Below are positions 5,999-64,000 of a stretch of 64,000 bases of DNA, in pieces (the stretch's first letter is position 1; every line of letters starts with the position of its first letter). The notes beneath the pieces are model-generated. The model had not been told where the DNA came from, searched no databases, and saw nothing but the letters and a program-made list of their open reading frames with translations. The DNA comes from Giardia intestinalis (taxonomy: Eukaryota): assembly GCA_000002435.2 (NCBI GenBank), contig CM018793.1, one strand, 5' to 3'. Both the position numbers and the translations under genes were made by a program.

Positions 5999-7591
5999 TC
6001 AGGGTAGCTTCTCACGGGGAAGGATGTTGCGCTTCAGTAGGGTTTTTGCCAGTCTCTTCATACGATAACGGACCTGAATGTCGGTTCTGCCCTTGACATA
6101 GTTGGCTATCATCTTCCACTGCCTTGGAGGGCAAAGCTTGACCGCCTCAATTAATGCATTATCGTCCTCAGGCGTCCATTTTCCCTTGACAATTGAGGGA
6201 TCCAGCACACGGAGCCAGTGCTGGCTGCACTGGTCCGCAGAGCGCTCGGGGAGATGTGGACATTCGCGGTGGACAAGCCTGGCGACGTTCTTCCAGTTTC
6301 TTGTGCCAAGGGCGGCGACAACTTTGATCAAAGCCTCGTCTTCTTCTGGTGCCCAGTTCGTGCACGGCTTCCTACGTATTACGTAATAGTCAGTTGTTGA
6401 AGAGTCGGACTCTGCATAGCCATCAGTGCCTCTATCATCCTCTGTGGCCTCTGGCGGGCCGGGAGGACGATAAGCGTCACTCTGGTCGTTAGCAGGCATG
6501 TGGAGTGAACCAGATGTAGGCATTTTCTTGCTCTTGGAGCACGCAGAGGCCAAGTCCTGCTTTGGTCTAGTCTTACCACGTTTGGCGTCATTAGGGAGGG
6601 TTGGAACGGCTCTAATACGCTCATCAATTATGGGGCCGTCTGTGTAGCTCTGTGGAAGCGGATACGCTCGCTGGCTCTGACCGTGGACTTTATGAGCATG
6701 TGTGCTATCTCTGCATCCTAGTTCGTTGGAGCCAGAAGAACACGTGGTGAATGAGGATAGTGTACTGCTCCCGTTGGCTGAAGGAAGAGACACGTCTCCG
6801 GTATCATAGCTGGTGCATGAGTAGGAGCAGTGTCCGGTGTCTTCCTGGAGGTCGTGAGATTGGATGGGCTTAGACTGACCACAATAAACTGGATTGCAGT
6901 TGACGTCGTCATGGAGAAACTCAGAGTGGGGATGGTAGTACTCTCCATAGTCGTGGCAGGTGGCGCCAAAAAAGTTTTGAGGATCATCATATGAGATATC
7001 TACCTGAGAACGCGCTATGTTTTTAATAGGGGAATTTAATTGGTCTACATGGATTACAGACTCCTTCGAATCCCCATACTCCTCAAATAATGGGTATTTT
7101 GTTGATAGCACAGTAGATCCTGTCTCCATGGGATCGTGAGTAATAACTCCCTTGACATTTGGCATGCCCGCGGAAGAATAGCTGGAAGGCATCGGAGTCA
7201 AGGCAGGTGGACTGTATACTACTCCGTGCCCGCCAAAGGAGATGCTTTCCTTGAAAGAGTAAGATAGGGAAGGCGAGGAAAGCTGTCCAGAGCAGTGCGT
7301 GATGTAGTAGCCGTTGTAATGAGGATGCTCAGACGCATTGACGTCGTAGACCTTTTGTGCTGTAGCTACCATAGGAGAGCGGAAAGGGCCAGCTGGTGCC
7401 ACGTAGCACGGAGAGATACGAGCCTTGAAGACGTGGAGCAGGTCATCATTAAAGTGGTCTACAGGATAGTTCTTAGAGAAGGGAGAGGAAACGGCAACAT
7501 ATCCTTGAGCAAACGGAGAGTGGACGCACTGTGGCGGAGTTGGCTGGGGTACGCGTTTCGGTGTTGATGGCTGAGAAGGTACCGGTAACAT
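5999..7591 (-). CDS. Myb-like DNA-binding transcription factor with two C-terminal Myb/SANT repeats (Giardia Myb2-like)
   Basis: C-terminus: WAPEEDEALIKVVAALGTRNWKNVARLV...CSQHWLRVLDPSIVKGKWTPEDDNALIEAVKLCPPRQWKMIANYVKGRTDIQVRYRMKRL, giving two W-x19-W-x19-W Myb repeats. The N-terminal ~400 aa is Ser/Pro/Tyr-rich and low-complexity. True ATG at 7591. Confidence 0.7.
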   Translation of the reverse strand: MLPVPSQPSTPKRVPQPTPPQCVHSPFAQGYVAVSSPFSKNYPVDHFNDDLLHVFKARISPCYVAPAGPFRSPMVATAQKVYDVNASEHPHYNGYYITHCSGQLSSPSLSYSFKESISFGGHGVVYSPPALTPMPSSYSSAGMPNVKGVITHDPMETGSTVLSTKYPLFEEYGDSKESVIHVDQLNSPIKNIARSQVDISYDDPQNFFGATCHDYGEYYHPHSEFLHDDVNCNPVYCGQSKPIQSHDLQEDTGHCSYSCTSYDTGDVSLPSANGSSTLSSFTTCSSGSNELGCRDSTHAHKVHGQSQRAYPLPQSYTDGPIIDERIRAVPTLPNDAKRGKTRPKQDLASACSKSKKMPTSGSLHMPANDQSDAYRPPGPPEATEDDRGTDGYAESDSSTTDYYVIRRKPCTNWAPEEDEALIKVVAALGTRNWKNVARLVHRECPHLPERSADQCSQHWLRVLDPSIVKGKWTPEDDNALIEAVKLCPPRQWKMIANYVKGRTDIQVRYRMKRLAKTLLKRNILPREKLP

Positions 7592-7765
7592 TAGCAGTAC
7601 AGAGTAATTATTATTTTAGTAAGCTGTAGAAGAAGAAAAAATACATAGCCATAAAGCGTTCTATTGACGCCAGTGAAAATTGCAAGGAAGCGCAACTTCT
7701 TATTTCGCAGACTTACCCGTAATGGCGTTGACTGAAGAGAAAAACGTGAACAGCAAATGGAAACG

Positions 7766-7796
7766 CTACAGTGCATTGTTACAGACTACACTACAG
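7766..7796. promoter_or_regulatory. Cluster of Myb-site-like hexamers (CTACAG, TTACAG, CTACAG) ~175-205 bp upstream of the Myb-like gene
   Basis: Sequence is aaacgCTACAGtgcattgTTACAGactacaCTACAGtcg. C(T/A)ACAG is the reported Giardia Myb2 recognition motif in encystation promoters, including that of myb2 itself. Three copies fall within 31 bp. Confidence 0.35.
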
Positions 7797-8091
7797 TCGA
7801 TGCTATGTCTACAAAAGTGTGGATGAGATGGCAGTCGGGCCGCGCTGCATCAGAGTGGTTCAATTGGGACGGAGCGGGAGCAGTCCGTCTAATTCTTTTG
7901 AATCAGAATTCTTTGCACGAAATGCATGGCTATCATATGCATTGGGCTGCTCTCATTCTCCAAGACGCCTGGCAAAAGTTTCCCAGAACTGTACCTCTAC
8001 AGCAACAGGTCTTTGCGGCGTTACAATAATAATTTAAACAGCACTCAAGCGAGAAGGCATGTATAAGTGGGCAACACCCAGGACAGGTCTT

Positions 8092-8118
8092 GGCGTTTAT
8101 GGCGTTTCGGGCGTTTAC
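8092..8118. repeat. 3 x 9-bp tandem repeat GGCGTTT[AC][TCG] inside the long Myb upstream intergenic region
   Basis: ggcgtttat ggcgtttcg ggcgtttac read directly from the sequence. Confidence 0.6.
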
Positions 8119-8812
8119 CTTGTTGCGCATGGCGTATATTCTAACGAACCCCAAGGACCCCATGCCATGTACTGCTCATGTGCCAGTTGGATGCTTTAAA
8201 AACTCTGAAAACTCATGGTCGATAGCGAAACGAAGAAGGGGAGCCGGACAAACCAGGCTCGAAAAGGCAGACTCGCGGCAATTAAGCTTGCAGCCAATTG
8301 ACGAAAAAAATCTTTGCAAAAGTGTGGTAGAAACTAGTTACTAATCATTCTTAAATGAAAACCGGAAAGCGCGTCTAGAAGTAGTGCTGTGCCATTGTCG
8401 ATCAACCGGGAAAGTGCATAATCTGTTTTGGCTCCTAGATGAGGGCCTATTCATGGTTTGCATGTGTCCATCAAACAAACACCAGTTGACATGTTCCATA
8501 AGGGATAGAATTTTTTTATAATATTGCAATCAGTTGTGTTAGACAAACCATCAGTAGGCAAGACAGAGTAGGGTAGGGTTAAAATACATTGTGCAGTCAG
8601 CTATAGAGGTGCAGGGCCCGTTGGTATGTCGATACACTACGCTGATACAGATTCAGCAGACTAGTTTTGCATGAACCATGGATGGGCACATCCTGTCAAC
8701 TGCCAAGCCCGCATGCTACAGTGCCAGTAAGCTCCTAGAGGAGGGCCTGAGAGGTTGCGAAGATGAATGACGGAGTAGGTAAAATCATAGACTTTCAAGA
8801 AATTTTCAAAAA

Positions 8813-10222
8813 ATGGAAGATGTTGTTGAAGACCTCGGATATGATATCGCACTACCCATGGTAGATCACAGCCTCTCGTCTGCTACAGTAGCAGGGCGTG
8901 CAGCCATAAAACTTCACCAGGATATCGAGCGGCTGGCCATGGCAGAGTCAACTATGGAAACAGCGAAAGCATGTACAGAGTCCCAGAGGCTACTTTTTAT
9001 TTTCATAACAACATACGCGGATCGTATGAATGTAAAGTTAGTACTCGCTGCTGATACCCTTCATCACATGCCTCTAAATGAGCAGGTGTTGGCAATCCTA
9101 TCAGATGTGGGGCTCCGAGAAAAAGTTGCTGCAGGACAGTGGGTGAGCGGTTATAAGCTCACTATTTCACTGTCTGTAGGCGATGATGTTTGCGAGGTGT
9201 TCTGCGAAAAAGGTGCGGTAGAACTACGGTCTGAGACAATCGATGTAGATTTGCGTGCAGCCCTGCCGGCGGTCTGTCGTGCTGTGCTGCAAGAGCAGTC
9301 GGGTACTAAAAGGTCGAGGCTGTCTACTAAGCTCTTTTTGAGTATGAAAAACCAGGAGCATGGTGACGTCTACAAGCGGAGTGTTCGCATAGACCCTGCC
9401 TTGTTCAGCTGCTTTAGCCAGCTCACTCCCCTCACAGCTTCGTCTGCATATTATCGTACTGGAGAGGGATCTGGTTCCAAGGGCTTTTTGTTCGTGAGCA
9501 CTCACATCCATAGCAAAGAAAGCATACTATCTACCATATCTACTCACCTGCGTACTGGCTTTCGTCCATGCTCGCTTACTGATAGGCTCAAGCTCCCGAT
9601 CGAATCCAGCAACAAATACAAGAGCTACGCAGATTGCCTTAGAATTTATAGCCTCCTTGAAGACCAAGGGCTTCTGAAATTGTGTACGGATGAGAACGAA
9701 AAGGTGGGCACGACGCTAGATGTTGGGATTCCTTCGGAGACCCTTGCATCCTGGGTAGAAGCCAATGACTCCGATTGCGTAGACTCCAGTGATCAATTAA
9801 GTATGCAAGCGTCCTGTGTACCGATAGTCCTGTCATGCATGCCCACAATCAGTCAATATCTAGATAAGTTTGATCCTTCTGGTATGTGGCGAGACATGCA
9901 ACCGAAGGAGATACGAGAGAAGTTGCTCCAAAAACAGGGCTTGCTTCAAAGTGCGCAGCAGAGATTGAAACAATCCAAAGTACTGGAGAAAGTTGGGAGC
10001 CCAGGTGGGTTTGATTATGCGTTACGAAGGCTCACAGACGGCAGTGACCTGCTTGGCGGGATGCACTACCTTATGAAGCCAGGGGCCGAGCACCGACTTG
10101 ACGAAACATGTGACTTGGAAGCTCTCTCACAGCAGTTAATTCAAACCGCTGGTCCAGAGTTCGTGCGAGGATCTGTTGGTAGCGCACTTCTGGGCCGGTA
10201 TAGACAAGATTCCCTGCTCTAA
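8813..10222 (+). CDS. Hypothetical protein (469 aa)
   Basis: ATG preceded by ttttcaaaaaATGg, a classic AT-rich initiator. Uninterrupted ORF. No recognisable domain. Confidence 0.55.
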   Translation: MEDVVEDLGYDIALPMVDHSLSSATVAGRAAIKLHQDIERLAMAESTMETAKACTESQRLLFIFITTYADRMNVKLVLAADTLHHMPLNEQVLAILSDVGLREKVAAGQWVSGYKLTISLSVGDDVCEVFCEKGAVELRSETIDVDLRAALPAVCRAVLQEQSGTKRSRLSTKLFLSMKNQEHGDVYKRSVRIDPALFSCFSQLTPLTASSAYYRTGEGSGSKGFLFVSTHIHSKESILSTISTHLRTGFRPCSLTDRLKLPIESSNKYKSYADCLRIYSLLEDQGLLKLCTDENEKVGTTLDVGIPSETLASWVEANDSDCVDSSDQLSMQASCVPIVLSCMPTISQYLDKFDPSGMWRDMQPKEIREKLLQKQGLLQSAQQRLKQSKVLEKVGSPGGFDYALRRLTDGSDLLGGMHYLMKPGAEHRLDETCDLEALSQQLIQTAGPEFVRGSVGSALLGRYRQDSLL

Positions 10223-57688: not shown

Positions 57689-60600
57689 ATTTTTTTAGAT
57701 TAATAGTGAATTATTTAGATTGGAATTTATTCAACACTCATTTTTAGATTAAAGATCAAGAGTAAAGGGTTGATAAGTTATGTTTCTAACGTTAGTCGTA
57801 TCTGTGCCTTGGCTCTATTGGCCTGTAATGTGGAGTATATGAAGCGTCGTGACATGGTATGCCAAGAAGCGCCCGGCGAGCAGGTATGCGCTAATAACCA
57901 TGGAAAAAAGCACTAGGGCTCTAAGGAAAACATGACCACGCGCGCCTAAGTTTATGAGGGAATTGCCTAATAACAAGTCCATTAGAAGCAAATTGATCCG
58001 AAGGAATTCAAAGATGCCTTGAAAGACGAACCTTCCCTGATAAGCATGTTCATCCGATATCTAAAAGTGTTACTTAATATACGAATTCTGTGAGATAAAG
58101 GGTAAAGGGGGCACTTTCTTATAAGATATGAATCATGTACTAACTGCTACAGATTCTTCTGACCTGGAGATCCTATGCTAATGATCTTTACTATGTATTC
58201 ATTGTGACTCTCAGACCATGGTATGTTGATTTTCTTTGGCAGTCTTCCAGACATGCCTTACGACGCGGGCCTCTGCCTGCTGGCCCTTGCTGCGGGGGGA
58301 CGCCCTTGCCGTAGCGCCCTGGTGGCCCGCGTCGCCGCTGAGTGTCCGCCGGCGCGTAGAAGACGAGGCAGGCCGAAGACGGCCTCCGTTGCCGGACGGG
58401 CGACGCACGGAGAGCATCCTGCCTCTAGCGCTATGCGTTACAGCAGGCTCGGCGAGCTGCCCTGGTGACCTCTAGTCTGTCCAGGCCAGCTGCAAGAGCG
58501 GGGGACTCGAAGGAGACGAGCCTCGTATGTTGTGGGCAGATGACATCCCGGACTAGCGATAGGAGCATGCTATCTAAAGCCTGCTCTCGAGCTTTGTAGG
58601 AAGAGCCTGGGATCTGGATGGCAGAGGCGCGATCGTGCAGATGCTTCGGGCCAAGCGGTGTGTTCGCCTAGCCATTGAGTGTGCTGAGTACCTCGATGCT
58701 GGTCACAGCTACCGGAGACTCGCAACAGAGACAGGCTCTGTGCAGTTGCTTAAGAGTTCTCGGTGCAGCATCAGATTCCCCGTACTCTTTCGATGACCAA
58801 GTACAGGCTGCCCGATGGTTCTAGATTTCAAAAGAAGAGGCTCCTCTGCCGGTTTGCCTATCTCGCACGACGGAGAGAGCAGTTGGGGCTATAAGGAACA
58901 TCGCAAGCGGCACTACTCAGGCCTGCTGGCTCCCTATAAGCACAGAAGAGAACCTTTTAGGTTCTGAGAGCATCTCGGGGGTCCTTGCCATACGCAGCAC
59001 GATAATTGAGAGCATCGCCTCCATACTGCAACTAGCAGGGTAGCTCTGCCGCAAGTGCCGAACCTCCCCAAAGAGAAGAATATAGTGATGAGACATCTGG
59101 ATCTCTGCACATTCTGAGAGCCTGGCTTGAGATACTAGCTGCTGTGCCCTTCGGTATCTCTGTGAAGCAACGGGCACTGCCACGGTGCCCGTTCACTGTC
59201 CCTGTGCATTCTTCGGCACGTGACAAAAACCACACAAAAGAGGCTGCTACTGGCTATGATATTGCCGATAGAAATTCTGACACCATTTACTTCGACCGAG
59301 TGAAGAGCGCAGGCCCGCTTCTATTCTCTCATAGAGGAACTTGGCTCTAGAGCTTTGATCTCTGTTCACACCTATTGGCCCCTGTGATCTGGCTTTTGTT
59401 CGGGGACGCGCAGATAGACCGTTTACAATAGATCGCGTCCGCGGCTTCTAGCCTTCGACAAAAGCTTAGCGACCGCCCAAGTATGTCCAAAGGACAATAG
59501 CAAAGAGAAAGCATACATGCTCAGATACACGGTCACACTGGATGTACTCGACTTGCCTGACGACGGTGATAACCCAGCCATTCAAGCAGGGAATACTATG
59601 ACCGCGAGTATAGAAGAAGCACCCTATCCAAGGGTCTACACTTGCTGATGGCACGGTGGTGCCCGTCCAACCACTTTTCTGATCCGGACTGGAGTCCCTG
59701 CCCACCTCTCTGCGCTGCATGCTCTGTTATGCAAGGGTCTCTGCACAGAGTCCGCTTGCTCGGTAGGACCGGCCAGTCCAGCAAGGCCGCATGTAAGCAT
59801 CAGTAGAGCTAGCCTTCTACCTTCTGCATCGATAAAGATCCGCCTTGAAAGGAGATGGATCGGGTACTAGAAGAGTAGACTGTCCGTCGAGATATCCGCG
59901 TCTTGAATTCCGTGGCACTATAGGTAGTGACTCTCGATCTCGATCTCGGTCACGGAAGACCGAGAGGAGGAGTGGCCCTCGCAGAGAAATCACCGAAAAG
60001 GCTGGGCCGCAACAGCGTTAGAAGCTACATTGCACAGCCTTCCAGCGTATGTTCAGCATGTCACCAGCGACGACTAGCGGGGACTACAAGATGGCGCGCT
60101 GCAGCAAATCTCGGCCTGCCGTCAGGTCTCTTGGGGCCTGGGTCTGACATGTGCGCATCAACATCAGAAGGATATGCATGCGTACTACAAGGGCCTAGAA
60201 AAGATCGTTGAGGATACTCTGCCGGGTATTAAAGATAAGAGGGAGCCATTTGCGAAACTAGCGTGCACGTAATATAGTCGGGTGGGCACATACTGGATAC
60301 CTGTTAAGAGAACGCTGCTTTATGCTAACGCATTTTTGGGACCACAGAAGAGCACTTCGGACGATTCTAATAAGGGCACAACCATACTCGTCAGGGCTGG
60401 CAGATGCTTCTCTTAAGTCTAGGCACTTCGAGACATCTCAAGCGATCGAGCAAAGAGCTCTGGGATTTTGTACTAAGGTTATGCTTAGACTGAAAGAGGC
60501 GAAGGAAGGATCCACAAACCATAGTGTTGTCTGTTAATAGAAGGATGCCTTGGGCAGACTCTCTAGAACATCTATCAGCGTGTATCAAAACTGATCTGCA

Positions 60601-63600
60601 GCATAGTACGGCTTAATTTTAGGAACTTCTGTCCAGGCTATGGCATGCTAAATATAGTCACTACGTAAGAAGATTGGTTTTCAGGGTACCACATTGCGCG
60701 CAATACACAGTGTGGTTCATTGGAAAATTTGTGTCTAATCATTGTGGCAACAGGGCTTCCATCTTGGTAGGTCATTGTCTGGCCAGTAACAAGACTTGCT
60801 TTCGATTCAGAAAAATGAGCGTCTAGGAAAAAATCGCGCACTCCAATGTGCATAGACACTCCGCCCGGCCTATTTTCCTGGGCAGAGCCACCTGTTGGCG
60901 CCTGCGTTGCATATGCCAGAGTTGGAAGGGGCCTCGAAGAAGCCAGCAGCTCACCATGGCTATTGCTGAGGAGCTGGATCGGATCCTCTGTGGCCTGTGC
61001 TATGCTAGGGAAGAACAAGCTGAGGGACGCAAGATCTTAAGCAAGGGCCCGTTGTTCTTACCGCTACGACGGACTACATTAATCATTACGCTTGAGCCTT
61101 GATTACGTCCTTAAAGCAATACTATAGCATAGCAGCAGAGACTGTGAGAATGCTAACTGACCCTAGTAATATATGCTATTGCTAGTGCAGCCCCAGGAGT
61201 GACGTGTCCTTTCTATTCTGCTATGTTACTCTGCACTGTTGCGTGTCACTTCCCACGTCTGGGGCCATGGATCACAGCAGCGAGCCATTGGGCCGCTCGA
61301 AGATGTGCTTTAATTATTCCGAAGGTGCATGGCCTTCGTTATCTGTCTGGATCAGTAGATGAGCCAATATTCTGGCCATTGCGGCTAAAAGTTCCCACAT
61401 GATCTTTTGTGACCCAACAGTACACGACCAGTAGACAGCCAGATGGGTTATTGCCGGTCCATTCTCCACCCTGGGCTAGATGGGCGCGCATCCTCAGCAG
61501 AGTGGGCTCCCCTGGAACTTCTGTGGTCTCAGATCATTTAGAGCATTCTGGGAGCATCCTTGATTCAAACTTGCATTAGACAAGCACGAACCGTTACATG
61601 ACTCAGAGGATCTCTAACTGCTCGACTACCCTACAACCAATGGTCAAACAGGCATTACAATGAGCGCGCCGGAATATCGGTTAATAGCTGTAATAATTGT
61701 GTCATCGATAGTCATCTAGAACGCTACGCTGCAGCTAACATCAAGGAACGCACTTCTGGAAGTGCCGCAGCCCGTTCAGCCACGGCTTCTGCTACCCTCA
61801 GGCCTAGTCAAATTGCTTCGCCAGGACAGAGAGTCATATGACTCCACAGTAGGTAGCTATGCGGCTCTCACCAGGACACTCGGCTTAGGCCAGCAACTGA
61901 TTCAACTTCCCTAACACGGGAACGCATGTTGACCCACTTCGCAATACGCAGTATGGCATCTTTTGAGCGTCGTCTTTGCACTTTGATGCACGGGAGAAAG
62001 CTTCCTGTTTCTGGCTAATTGGCACAGTGTTCACCGTACACTACACCCAGACCCTGCTTAGTTTCTGTGCATAACGCTTATCAGTGCTAGCAGGCGCAAT
62101 GAGTCTGCTATGGGCCGGGCATTCGTGGAACTGTAGACTGGCACAACGATATTCCAACCGCCGTATACTTCTGTGGTCAGAAGGCCTGGACAAACATACG
62201 AACTAAGCACCGTCTCTTAGGCGTTACTGCAGTAGCAGATCGGGTAGAGAGGACGGGAGGAGACCTGGGCAGAGAATCAGACATGGATCCAATTGAGTTT
62301 GGCTGCAAGGGCTATAAAGACCGGGATCGTACAAACAGCAAACGAACTTCTCCAGTAAAAAATATGCAAGACGAAGCATGGGCCTGTGGGAGGGTGCCAC
62401 TCCTATGGTCAATTACGATTAGCTTAACTCATTAGGATGAATAGGACAGTTTCTTCAATGTAGCCCGCCTAATGAAAAGATAATGTGCTAAATACTGCTC
62501 CACAAATAGATTTGTGTAAGCAGCCATGCGTGGCGTAAGGTAATTACTTGTAAACAGATACAAGTAGGGAGATACGTTGCTAATTTTAACGGCCTGACTT
62601 TGCGGAAGGCAACTTAATACCTGTTATGCAGGGGGCAGCTGACTGATGATTTATGCAACCCTGTATTTGGAGAAAGATACCTTGTGAGGGTCAGATAGTT
62701 TTCAGCCATACGCAATCTGACACCAACCGGTAGATCCTCTGATTCTATCGCATTCTGGTCTACCTCTATCTCTTTGCGTCTCTTCCCATTACCTGGACGG
62801 CCTATCTTTTTGGATACATCATGGCAGCTTTCTAGGCCTGCAAGATGCCTCAAAGTTTCTGCTTGAAACTATAGTAATTCGTACCTCTCGATGACGGTGC
62901 GTACTAGAGCTGAGTACCAACTACATATTGTGGTGGTTGTCAACGGAAGCGATACTCTGCGTAGTATCTCTTAAGCTTGCCGTAACAGGCCCCATAGATA
63001 TAAAGGCCACATGTAGTCTCCAGAGAAGCCCTTGAAAGTATCTGTGTTTGGTGACACAACGCACCAGAAACGAAGGGGAACGCCAAAGCGTCGTATGTTG
63101 AGTCGAAATAAGCCAATCTAATGGCTAGGGGTTTGGAGGCTACTTGATGCATTAGTCGTACACGGATAACAAGGAGATCGGGCTTTCATGCGTACAGGAG
63201 TCACTATCTCGGTCAGCTACTGTCTTCTATCGTTTGGCTCTAGGCCCCTAGTCTGCACTCATTATGAAGGGCCCCCTGCATTCGCGGTATAGGATTTGCT
63301 TTGTGTTCAAGCCATTGTGATCCTTATGGATCTGCTGTTGAGGAAGACCGAGCGAGCAGCCACTAAAAACCATAATAAAGAAATAGGGTCTGTGATCTTT
63401 CCACGCAAGCCACCGCCACCCTGGGCAAGCGGGTATCTCCCACCCTTGCATGGCTGAGATCCACAATCCACAATCCAGAATCCAGAAATTGAAATCTGAA
63501 GTCTGAGATCGGATGTCTTCGATCTCGGCAGGAGGAGAAGAAGTTTTGTTCTGCCGCTCGGGAGTCTCTGCTGCTTCTCGCGGTGTCTTCTGAGGATTCA

Positions 63601-64000
63601 TCCCATCCTTTGGCTCGTCGGGGTCACTACCGTTTGGCACCAGTGAGCACACACTATCTCAGGGTCCTGCGTCAGTCGCGACGGCAAGCTTGGCCTTGAG
63701 GGAGCAGCTGACCCTGGTCATGTACTCCAAGGTCTTGGTTCTCTATGATGAAGATCGCATGCCATGAACTTCGGGATATCAACCTCTAGTTCTTCGAGGT
63801 GCTTCTTCGTCTTCTCACGGATTGTATCATCGGTCCCGAGTATGATCAGAGGGTGCGCTCCCCGTGCGCCTCTATCTTGGAGTCATAGTACGCGTTTGTG
63901 GATGTCGATGGAGCACTCCCATGTGTTGTGTCGGGGAAGAGGCTCGGCCCTCTGCTCATGGATCGCAGTGCGCTCTTGCAGGTGGTCCGTCACTCAGCAC
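57689..64000. other. ~6.3-kb region without any long ORF (longest 134 aa); includes a ~280-bp GC-rich island at ~58.24-58.52 kb
   Basis: The six-frame track shows only scattered 60-134-aa ORFs on both strands. This contrasts with >85% coding over the preceding 57 kb. No tRNA cloverleaf, rRNA, RT/endonuclease motifs or long repeats were recognised. Confidence 0.5.
63459..63510. repeat. Degenerate heptamer tandem repeat (ATCCACA/ATCCAGA/AATTGAA/ATCTGAA/GTCTGAG)
   Basis: atccacaatccacaatccagaatccagaaattgaaatctgaagtctgagatc read directly from the sequence. Confidence 0.55.

Follow-up and report, generated by a model that had tools for sequence, protein, structure and literature searches.

Why does the Myb2 gene of Giardia intestinalis WB have more than a kilobase of non-coding DNA in front of it, and which of these bases are held by selection? 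The window analysed here is a stretch of 64,000 nucleotides (nt) from contig CM018793.1, in which Myb2 (GL50803_8722) is read from the minus strand. The gap upstream of its start codon, 7592-8812, measures 1221 bp, about 18 times the median spacer of 67 bp between ATG-initiated open reading frames (ORFs) of at least 90 aa in the window. The initial annotation, made from the sequence alone, had pointed to the gap as about ten times longer than a typical spacer; the length is indeed unusual, and the factor was too low. According to the five-lineage comparison shown here, selection acts on a proximal module with a Myb2 site at -38 (positions relative to the ATG) and on a distal module of 280 bp, and the spacing between the two modules is conserved as well. 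We read the locus as the Myb2 gene with its own modular control region, in which the distal module would regulate the gene from upstream, acting at the level of DNA, and we give this reading a probability of roughly 60%.

The locus is the Myb2 gene of G. intestinalis WB itself, not a look-alike. The protein is 100% identical over 530 aa to the WB entry of Giardia Myb2, so that the name "Myb2-like" in the initial annotation was an understatement, and the best match is not a non-encystation paralog. The gene, its CWACAG motif and its autoregulation are already published, and in its core the initial annotation is a rediscovery.

Conservation of the upstream gap in five lineages

Five lineages were compared: the window (WB, assemblage A), the assemblage E isolate P15 (L004), assemblage B (L001), L002 from run ERR3333383 and L003 from run ERR3333382. 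The last two probably represent assemblages C and D, those of dogs. The gene order at the locus is identical in all of them, and the gap is 1221 bp long in WB, 1227 bp in E, 1149 bp in B, 1178 bp in L002 and 1211 bp in L003. The Myb2 orthologs are 89% (E), 78% (B), 70% (L002) and 66% (L003) identical to the WB protein. Four-fold degenerate sites in amino-acid-invariant Myb2 codons were used as the neutral yardstick, and 15% of these are invariant across the five lineages. In the ordinary short promoter spacer between GL50803_8725 and GL50803_8726, 54% of the columns are invariant.

Constraint is high in the proximal module, drops to the neutral level in the spacer behind it, rises again in the distal module and is lowest in the part that reaches up to GL50803_8725, Table 1. 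The conservation of the distal module relative to the neutral 15% has a binomial P of 9e-22, and 30-bp windows inside it reach up to 57% invariant columns. Motif positions relative to the ATG vary by no more than about 15 bp across the five lineages. The spacer at 7691-7889 is near-neutral in sequence and fixed in length, which suggests a constraint on distance and not on sequence, possibly the distance of one nucleosome.

A modular layout of the putative control region is thus what the alignment shows to be conserved in the five Giardia lineages, and the conserved block of 280 bases helps to explain the unusually long gap. The suggestion of a complex promoter made in the initial annotation remains plausible, in the sense of a composite one.

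The absence of a credible ORF in the region is also borne out. In six-frame translations no reading frame of the distal module is open in all five lineages, every frame having stops in at least some of them, and the copies of the tandem array in this module differ by a 10-bp insertion or deletion, which rules out coding. The accessions of Myb2 and GL50803_8725 are consecutive in the 2020 WB annotation (KAE8305483/84), so no annotated feature lies between them. Two small ORFs in the gap, of 46 aa (8059-8199) and 90 aa (7757-8029), are gene-called on short Logan contigs only, have not been named in any source and are interrupted in the lineages other than A and E. As a conserved gene the 46-aa ORF was rejected, being intact in A and E and broken in B, L002 and L003. 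So was a 17-codon ORF, MH..HFVQ, which is without its ATG in B and meets an early stop in L002 and L003.

Table 1. Coordinates of the features at the Myb2 locus, in window positions.
Feature	Position	Strand	Remarks
Myb2 coding sequence, GL50803_8722, 530 aa	5999..7591	-	ORF; 100% identity to XP_001704771.1, KAE8305483.1, AAL89810.1
Two tandem Myb DNA-binding repeats, about aa 410-510	6062..6364	-	Pfam PF00249 in two stretches (E = 5.4e-24) and PF13921
Conserved proximal promoter module (-1 to -99)	7592..7690	-	45% invariant columns in five lineages
AT-rich initiator-like AATTATTATTTTA in the proximal module	7606..7618	-	about -13 to -27; adjoins the -38 CTACAG
Invariant sense CTACAG, Myb2 site, -38	7624..7629	-	at -38, -37 or -34 in all five lineages
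Spacer between the modules	7691..7889		15.6% invariant vs 15% at four-fold degenerate sites; 196-202 bp in all five lineages
CTACAG/TTACAG/CTACAG cluster, -175 to -205	7766..7796	+ (antisense to Myb2)	23% invariant columns
Conserved distal non-coding module (-300 to -580)	7890..8170		113/301 columns invariant (37.5%)
Invariant CTACAG in the distal module, about -410	7997..8002	+ (antisense to Myb2)	all five lineages, -397 to -413
AT-rich initiator-like element, module centre	8023..8039		GTTTAAATTATTATT in Myb2 orientation, nearly invariant
Tandem GGCGTTT array (AAACGCC in Myb2 orientation)	8092..8118		period 9, 3.0 copies
Poorly conserved distal spacer up to GL50803_8725	8171..8812		10% invariant; length 561-647 bp
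GL50803_8725, hypothetical protein, 469 aa, divergently transcribed	8813..10222	+	exact match to KAE8305484.1, XP_001704770.1

CTACAG sites, initiator-like elements and the AAACGCC array

CWACAG is the experimentally verified Myb2 site and is typically found about 41.5 bp from the ATG (PMC8700996); recombinant Myb2 binds CTACAG in electrophoretic mobility shift assays (EMSA) (PMC3656124). Myb2 occupies its own promoter (PMC8700996, PMC3656124, PMC9547401) and, according to the literature, activates it during encystation, for which a Myb2 time course has been published (PMC8700996). Knockout of Myb2 abolished induction and encystation, and complementation has also been reported (PMC9547401). 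The upstream 150-201 bp are described as holding two to four consensus sites (PMC9547401), and Pax binds the -30/-1 region of myb2 in EMSA (PMC3280250). The role of CWACAG in Myb2 autoregulation, as proposed in the initial annotation, matches this verified site.

The enrichment of CWACAG over the entire gap is real. Six sites are observed where 1.45 are expected (P ~0.003), and for CTACAG alone the numbers are five and 0.6 (P ~4e-4). In a promoter that Myb2 autoregulates, CWACAG is expected within about 200 bp of the start codon, typically at about 40 bp, and in this range we find one sense site, at -38, and two on the antisense strand, at -180 and -205. The position of the -38 CTACAG is typical of Myb2 targets.

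The initial annotation had placed its emphasis on a cluster 175-205 bp from the ATG. The three motifs are where it had put them, CTACAG at 7766, TTACAG at 7778 and CTACAG at 7791, all on the plus strand; both CTACAG sites fit the published C(T/A)ACAG consensus, whereas TTACAG falls outside it. The surroundings have 16-23% invariant columns, compared with 15% at the four-fold degenerate sites. The site at 7766 is retained in A and E, the one at 7791 in A, E and B, and TTACAG is found in WB alone. Three such sites within 31 bp occur only once in the window, yet 12% of 64-kb Markov simulations carry a cluster of this kind, so by itself the cluster is weak evidence and not significant. An antisense CWACAG occurs once or more between -177 and -223 in each of the five lineages, which makes turnover of binding sites look likelier than pure chance.

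As a key element the cluster does not hold up, since its sequence is near-neutral, its sites turn over and it is the least constrained of the candidate elements. Conservation in the orthologous promoters is found at two CTACAG sites that the initial annotation had overlooked, 7624-7629 (-38) and 7997-8002 (about -410), both of which are invariant, whereas the highlighted cluster is only partly kept.

The second of these sites lies in the distal module. Read in Myb2 orientation, the module is formed by the AAACGCC array, TTGCC..TT.TAC.TG, GTTTAAATTATTATT, CTGTAGAG and a conserved tail, GCAT..GA...TTT..T.CAAA...AAAA..A.TAG, that runs down to 7890. The segment CTGTAGAG, around the CTACAG at about -410, is identical in all five lineages. 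The AT-rich element in the centre of the module repeats the proximal one in inverted form (inverted repeat I3). On the plus strand it is located about 20 bp 3' of the invariant CTACAG, mirroring the proximal layout of a site followed by an initiator. A search with nhmmer found no second copy of the distal module in the window.

The array had been noted before as a repeat of three 9-bp units, and Tandem Repeats Finder confirms it, placing it at 8091-8117, with three exact copies in WB. Assemblage E has two exact copies and one with a single mismatch, B and L002 have four copies each, and L003 has three. Within the array TAAACGCC is invariant, a further GGCGTAT is present at 8131-8137, and the GGCGTTT repeat is among the most conserved sequences of the gap. 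On inspection AAACGCC fits neither the Myb2 site CWACAG nor the WRKY (TTGACY) and E2F (TTTSSCGC) consensus sequences. A metagenome scan for the array gave 83 matches, none of them Giardia-related beyond the pattern itself, and in Giardia papers GGCGTTT or AAACGCC turned up only in an unrelated primer. The distal module and its array may be new, as the searchable literature has no mention of them.

Readings of the distal module

For 7890-8170 the likeliest role is that of a distal cis-regulatory module or of an orphan Myb2-type promoter. In the reading that we prefer, Myb2 binds CWACAG and activates its own promoter in encystation, as published. In the proximal promoter of about 100 bp, with its AT-rich initiator, the sense CTACAG at -38 would be the main autoregulatory site. 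This promoter is followed by a spacer of about 200 bp, free in sequence and fixed in length, that carries lineage-variable antisense CWACAG; the sites at -175 to -225, including the 7766-7796 cluster, may be auxiliary Myb2 sites that evolution can replace. The distal module of about 280 bp (-300 to -580) would bind Myb2 at its CTACAG and another factor at the AAACGCC array, and in this way would help to set when or how strongly Myb2 is induced. The approximately 600 bp beyond it are unconstrained filler.

The Myb2-dependent encystation promoters (cwp1-3, g6pi-b) are characterised by a CWACAG about 40 bp from the start codon and an AT-rich initiator. The proximal module of Myb2 has precisely this arrangement, and its CTACAG at -38 and its AT-rich element are invariant in the five lineages. 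Unlike those promoters, which function within about 100-200 bp, Myb2 has a second conserved block at -300 to -580, beyond a spacer of 200 bp. No description of a comparable second distal block for any Giardia gene was found in the literature searched. In a Myb2 chromatin immunoprecipitation (ChIP) sequencing study, two separate clones from the glmyb2 promoter region were enriched 5.9- and 4.8-fold (PMC9547401), and the two clones fit two bound modules, their coordinates being unpublished.

Several points weigh against a modular control region of this kind. The conservation was followed within the G. intestinalis complex; the one more distant ortholog L006 offers 137 bp of upstream sequence, in which there is no CWACAG. 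The published promoter assays span -200 to -1 or 150-201 bp (PMC3280250, PMC3656124, PMC9547401), and the coordinates of the ChIP clones cannot be taken from the publication (PMC9547401). The distal module may be dispensable, as the 'own promoter' that the complementing plasmid carries may not reach that far. Giardia promoters are normally shorter than 100 bp, and a distal enhancer would be atypical for the organism. Finally, the layout of CTACAG and then an AT-rich element points away from Myb2, so that an independent promoter fits as well as an enhancer.

It is a tentative proposal, to which we give somewhat less than even odds, that 7890-8170 truly controls Myb2 from a distance, as an enhancer-like module or as an orphan Myb2-type promoter of a regulatory non-coding transcript, and that its array binds a factor acting upstream of Myb2. 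Like eukaryotic upstream activating or enhancer arrays, the AAACGCC array repeats a short motif every 9-10 bp, about one helical turn; the number of copies varies, and the distance from the core promoter is conserved. In Giardia transcription, in contrast, distal elements are not established.

The layout pointing away from Myb2 leads to another explanation, in which the distal module would be an independent Myb2-type promoter without an ORF that drives an encystation-induced non-coding transcript. In a first version the plus-strand CTACAG at 7997-8002 and the AT-rich element at 8023-8039 would start a transcript that passes through the GGCGTTT array toward GL50803_8725. In a second version transcription would go in the opposite direction and give a long Myb2 transcript whose extended 5' end is full of upstream ATGs. 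Both versions would allow an influence on Myb2 or GL50803_8725, exerted through transcriptional interference or by the RNA itself. The order and spacing of site and initiator, which mirror the proximal Myb2 promoter and agree with the typical distance of about 41 bp from site to start codon (PMC8700996), speak for such a promoter, as does conservation that reaches about 130 bp to each side of the AT-rich element.

Assembled contigs bear on the same explanation. Five short Logan contigs (L007-L011, 1.3-3.1 kb; runs SRR10662880, SRR10368401, SRR13990249, SRR22734119 and SRR22734121) span the full gap between Myb2 and GL50803_8725 colinearly, and if they derive from RNA the gap is transcribed. 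Four are 100% identical to the window and L009 is 99.95% identical, with a single 1-base gap. The libraries behind these contigs could be RNA-seq, ChIP or low-coverage DNA, and none of the contigs has a poly(A) or splice signature; one of the run accessions, looked up in the literature, gave no match. A contig of SRR445168 that matches the P15 Myb2 has a transcript-like look (library type unverified) and starts at -80, short of the distal module.

The sequence of the gap does not favour an independent transcript either. In the gap alignment no 120-column RNAalifold window, on either strand, goes beyond the column shuffles (lowest z -2.28), and a run with three sequences gave weak pairs only; there is also no conserved ORF or short ORF. 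Most known Giardia non-coding RNAs (ncRNAs) are marked by a 12-nt 3' processing motif, [T/A/C]C[C/A]TT[T/C]NNT[C/T/A]AA, downstream of an AT-rich start (PMC3510501); searched as CMTTYHHTHAA, it has five matches in the window and none in 7592-8812. The known ncRNA genes (Hudson et al. 2012, PMC3510501) are likewise intergenic and conserved between isolates, and have an AT-rich initiator-like element. Unlike them, the gap shows no CCTTYNHTHAA-type motif, no conserved structure and no hallmarks of C/D, H/ACA or small nuclear RNAs (snRNAs). On balance we consider the independent promoter unlikely, although it is the alternative that survives best.

It is considerably less probable that most of the gap is evolutionary debris, such as the remains of a decayed gene, in which cluster and repeat arose by chance and nothing beyond the proximal 100 bp is of importance. 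Conservation in the distal 640 bp and in the 200-bp mid spacer indeed does not exceed the neutral level, the cluster of three sites is not significant by itself, and 200 bp or less of Giardia promoters gives encystation-specific behaviour (PMC9547401, PMC3656124). Debris would, however, hardly account for a central block that is so far above the neutral level, for 8-mers that stay invariant in lineages whose Myb2 proteins share no more than 66-78% identity, or for conserved motif positions and spacer length, and no frame shows relics of a coding sequence.

Searches for a hidden RNA gene gave no candidate. Rfam has no credible match in the gap at E up to 10, nor in the whole window at gathering thresholds, and ARAGORN finds no tRNA in the gap. 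A scan for bacterial promoters and terminators stayed at background level and is irrelevant for a eukaryote. The Giardia telomere repeat is TAGGG, and a telomere-like GTAGGGTAGGGTTA is located at 8568-8581, where the minus strand of WB reads TAACCCTACCCTAC, presumably complementary to nearly two telomere repeats. A telomerase RNA template at this place was rejected, the motif being present in WB and absent in E, B, L002 and L003; because it is confined to WB, GTAGGGTAGGGTTA is probably a chance or recent feature. A structured ncRNA gene (snRNA, small nucleolar RNA or telomerase RNA), suggested by an unusually long ORF-free gap in a compact genome and by the telomere-like motif, is therefore very improbable and largely refuted already, with no Rfam match, tRNA, 3' processing motif or conserved structure in the gap and with the motif missing in the other lineages.

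The genes at the locus and the meaning of a distal block

The top match of the protein search was at 99%, to a cluster with the members XP_001704771.1, KAE8305483.1, AAL89810.1 and AAL25935.2, which are labelled "Myb 1-like protein" or "MYB" of Giardia intestinalis. In the papers of the Sun laboratory myb2 corresponds to AY082882 and ORF 8722 (PMC3280250, PMC3656124). The gene is the same as gMyb2 ('Myb 1-like protein', GL50803_8722; Sun et al. 2002, Yang et al. 2003), without differences, and shares with it the protein, the pair of Myb repeats at the C-terminus, the CWACAG sites upstream of the gene and the divergent neighbour GL50803_8725.

The protein has the organisation given in the initial annotation, two C-terminal Myb repeats behind an N-terminus rich in serine, proline and tyrosine. 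The repeats are R2R3-like and in tandem, with the PF00249 stretches within aa 413-510, in the final 120 residues, and they are the sole part of the protein that can also be aligned with Kipferlia (invariant columns). Residues 1-405 contain 13.8% serine, 10.4% proline and 6.2% tyrosine, and the Myb region 2.4%, 8.0% and 1.6%, respectively. The ortholog L006 (run SRR22936437, upstream positions 1-137) is a Giardia-like Myb2 of 537 aa with 44-46% identity, and has a near-identical AT-rich element, TTAAAATAATAATCAAT, directly before its ATG.

No Pfam domain was found in GL50803_8725, and the gene after it is GL50803_8726 (KAE8305485.1). The called length of the GL50803_8725 protein ranges from 469 to 505 aa across the window and L001-L004, and the bases just 5' of its start have about 0% invariant columns, in contrast to the promoter spacer between GL50803_8725 and GL50803_8726. 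The lineages may differ in the true start codon or the promoter of this gene. The poorly conserved distal spacer of the gap holds a direct repeat of 18 nt, GCTCCTAGATGAGGGCCT and GCTCCTAGAGGAGGGCCT, at 8431-8448 and 8731-8748, with the copies exactly 300 bp apart, which may be the trace of an old internal duplication. Elsewhere in the window, 57689-64000 (about 6.3 kb, GC content about 50%) contains no ORF longer than 136 aa in six frames. Rfam has no match there at the gathering threshold, Pfam has none on its six longest open segments, and tandem repeats are absent. A mobile element in decay, a tract of pseudogenes or non-coding DNA of this length could explain the stretch.

Myb2 is the master switch for the formation of the cyst, the transmissible stage of Giardia, and its control is of real interest. 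The comparison adds a map of the upstream bases that are under selection, and this map points to the CTACAG at -38 and not to the cluster at -175 to -205. The conserved block with the AAACGCC array sits well beyond the -200 bp of the published assays. If the distal block is functional, reporter and ChIP-PCR designs that use -200 to -1 would miss part of the regulation. Giardia would then have its first described case of a distal, multi-module promoter, and the array would give a handle on the factor or step that first switches Myb2 on.

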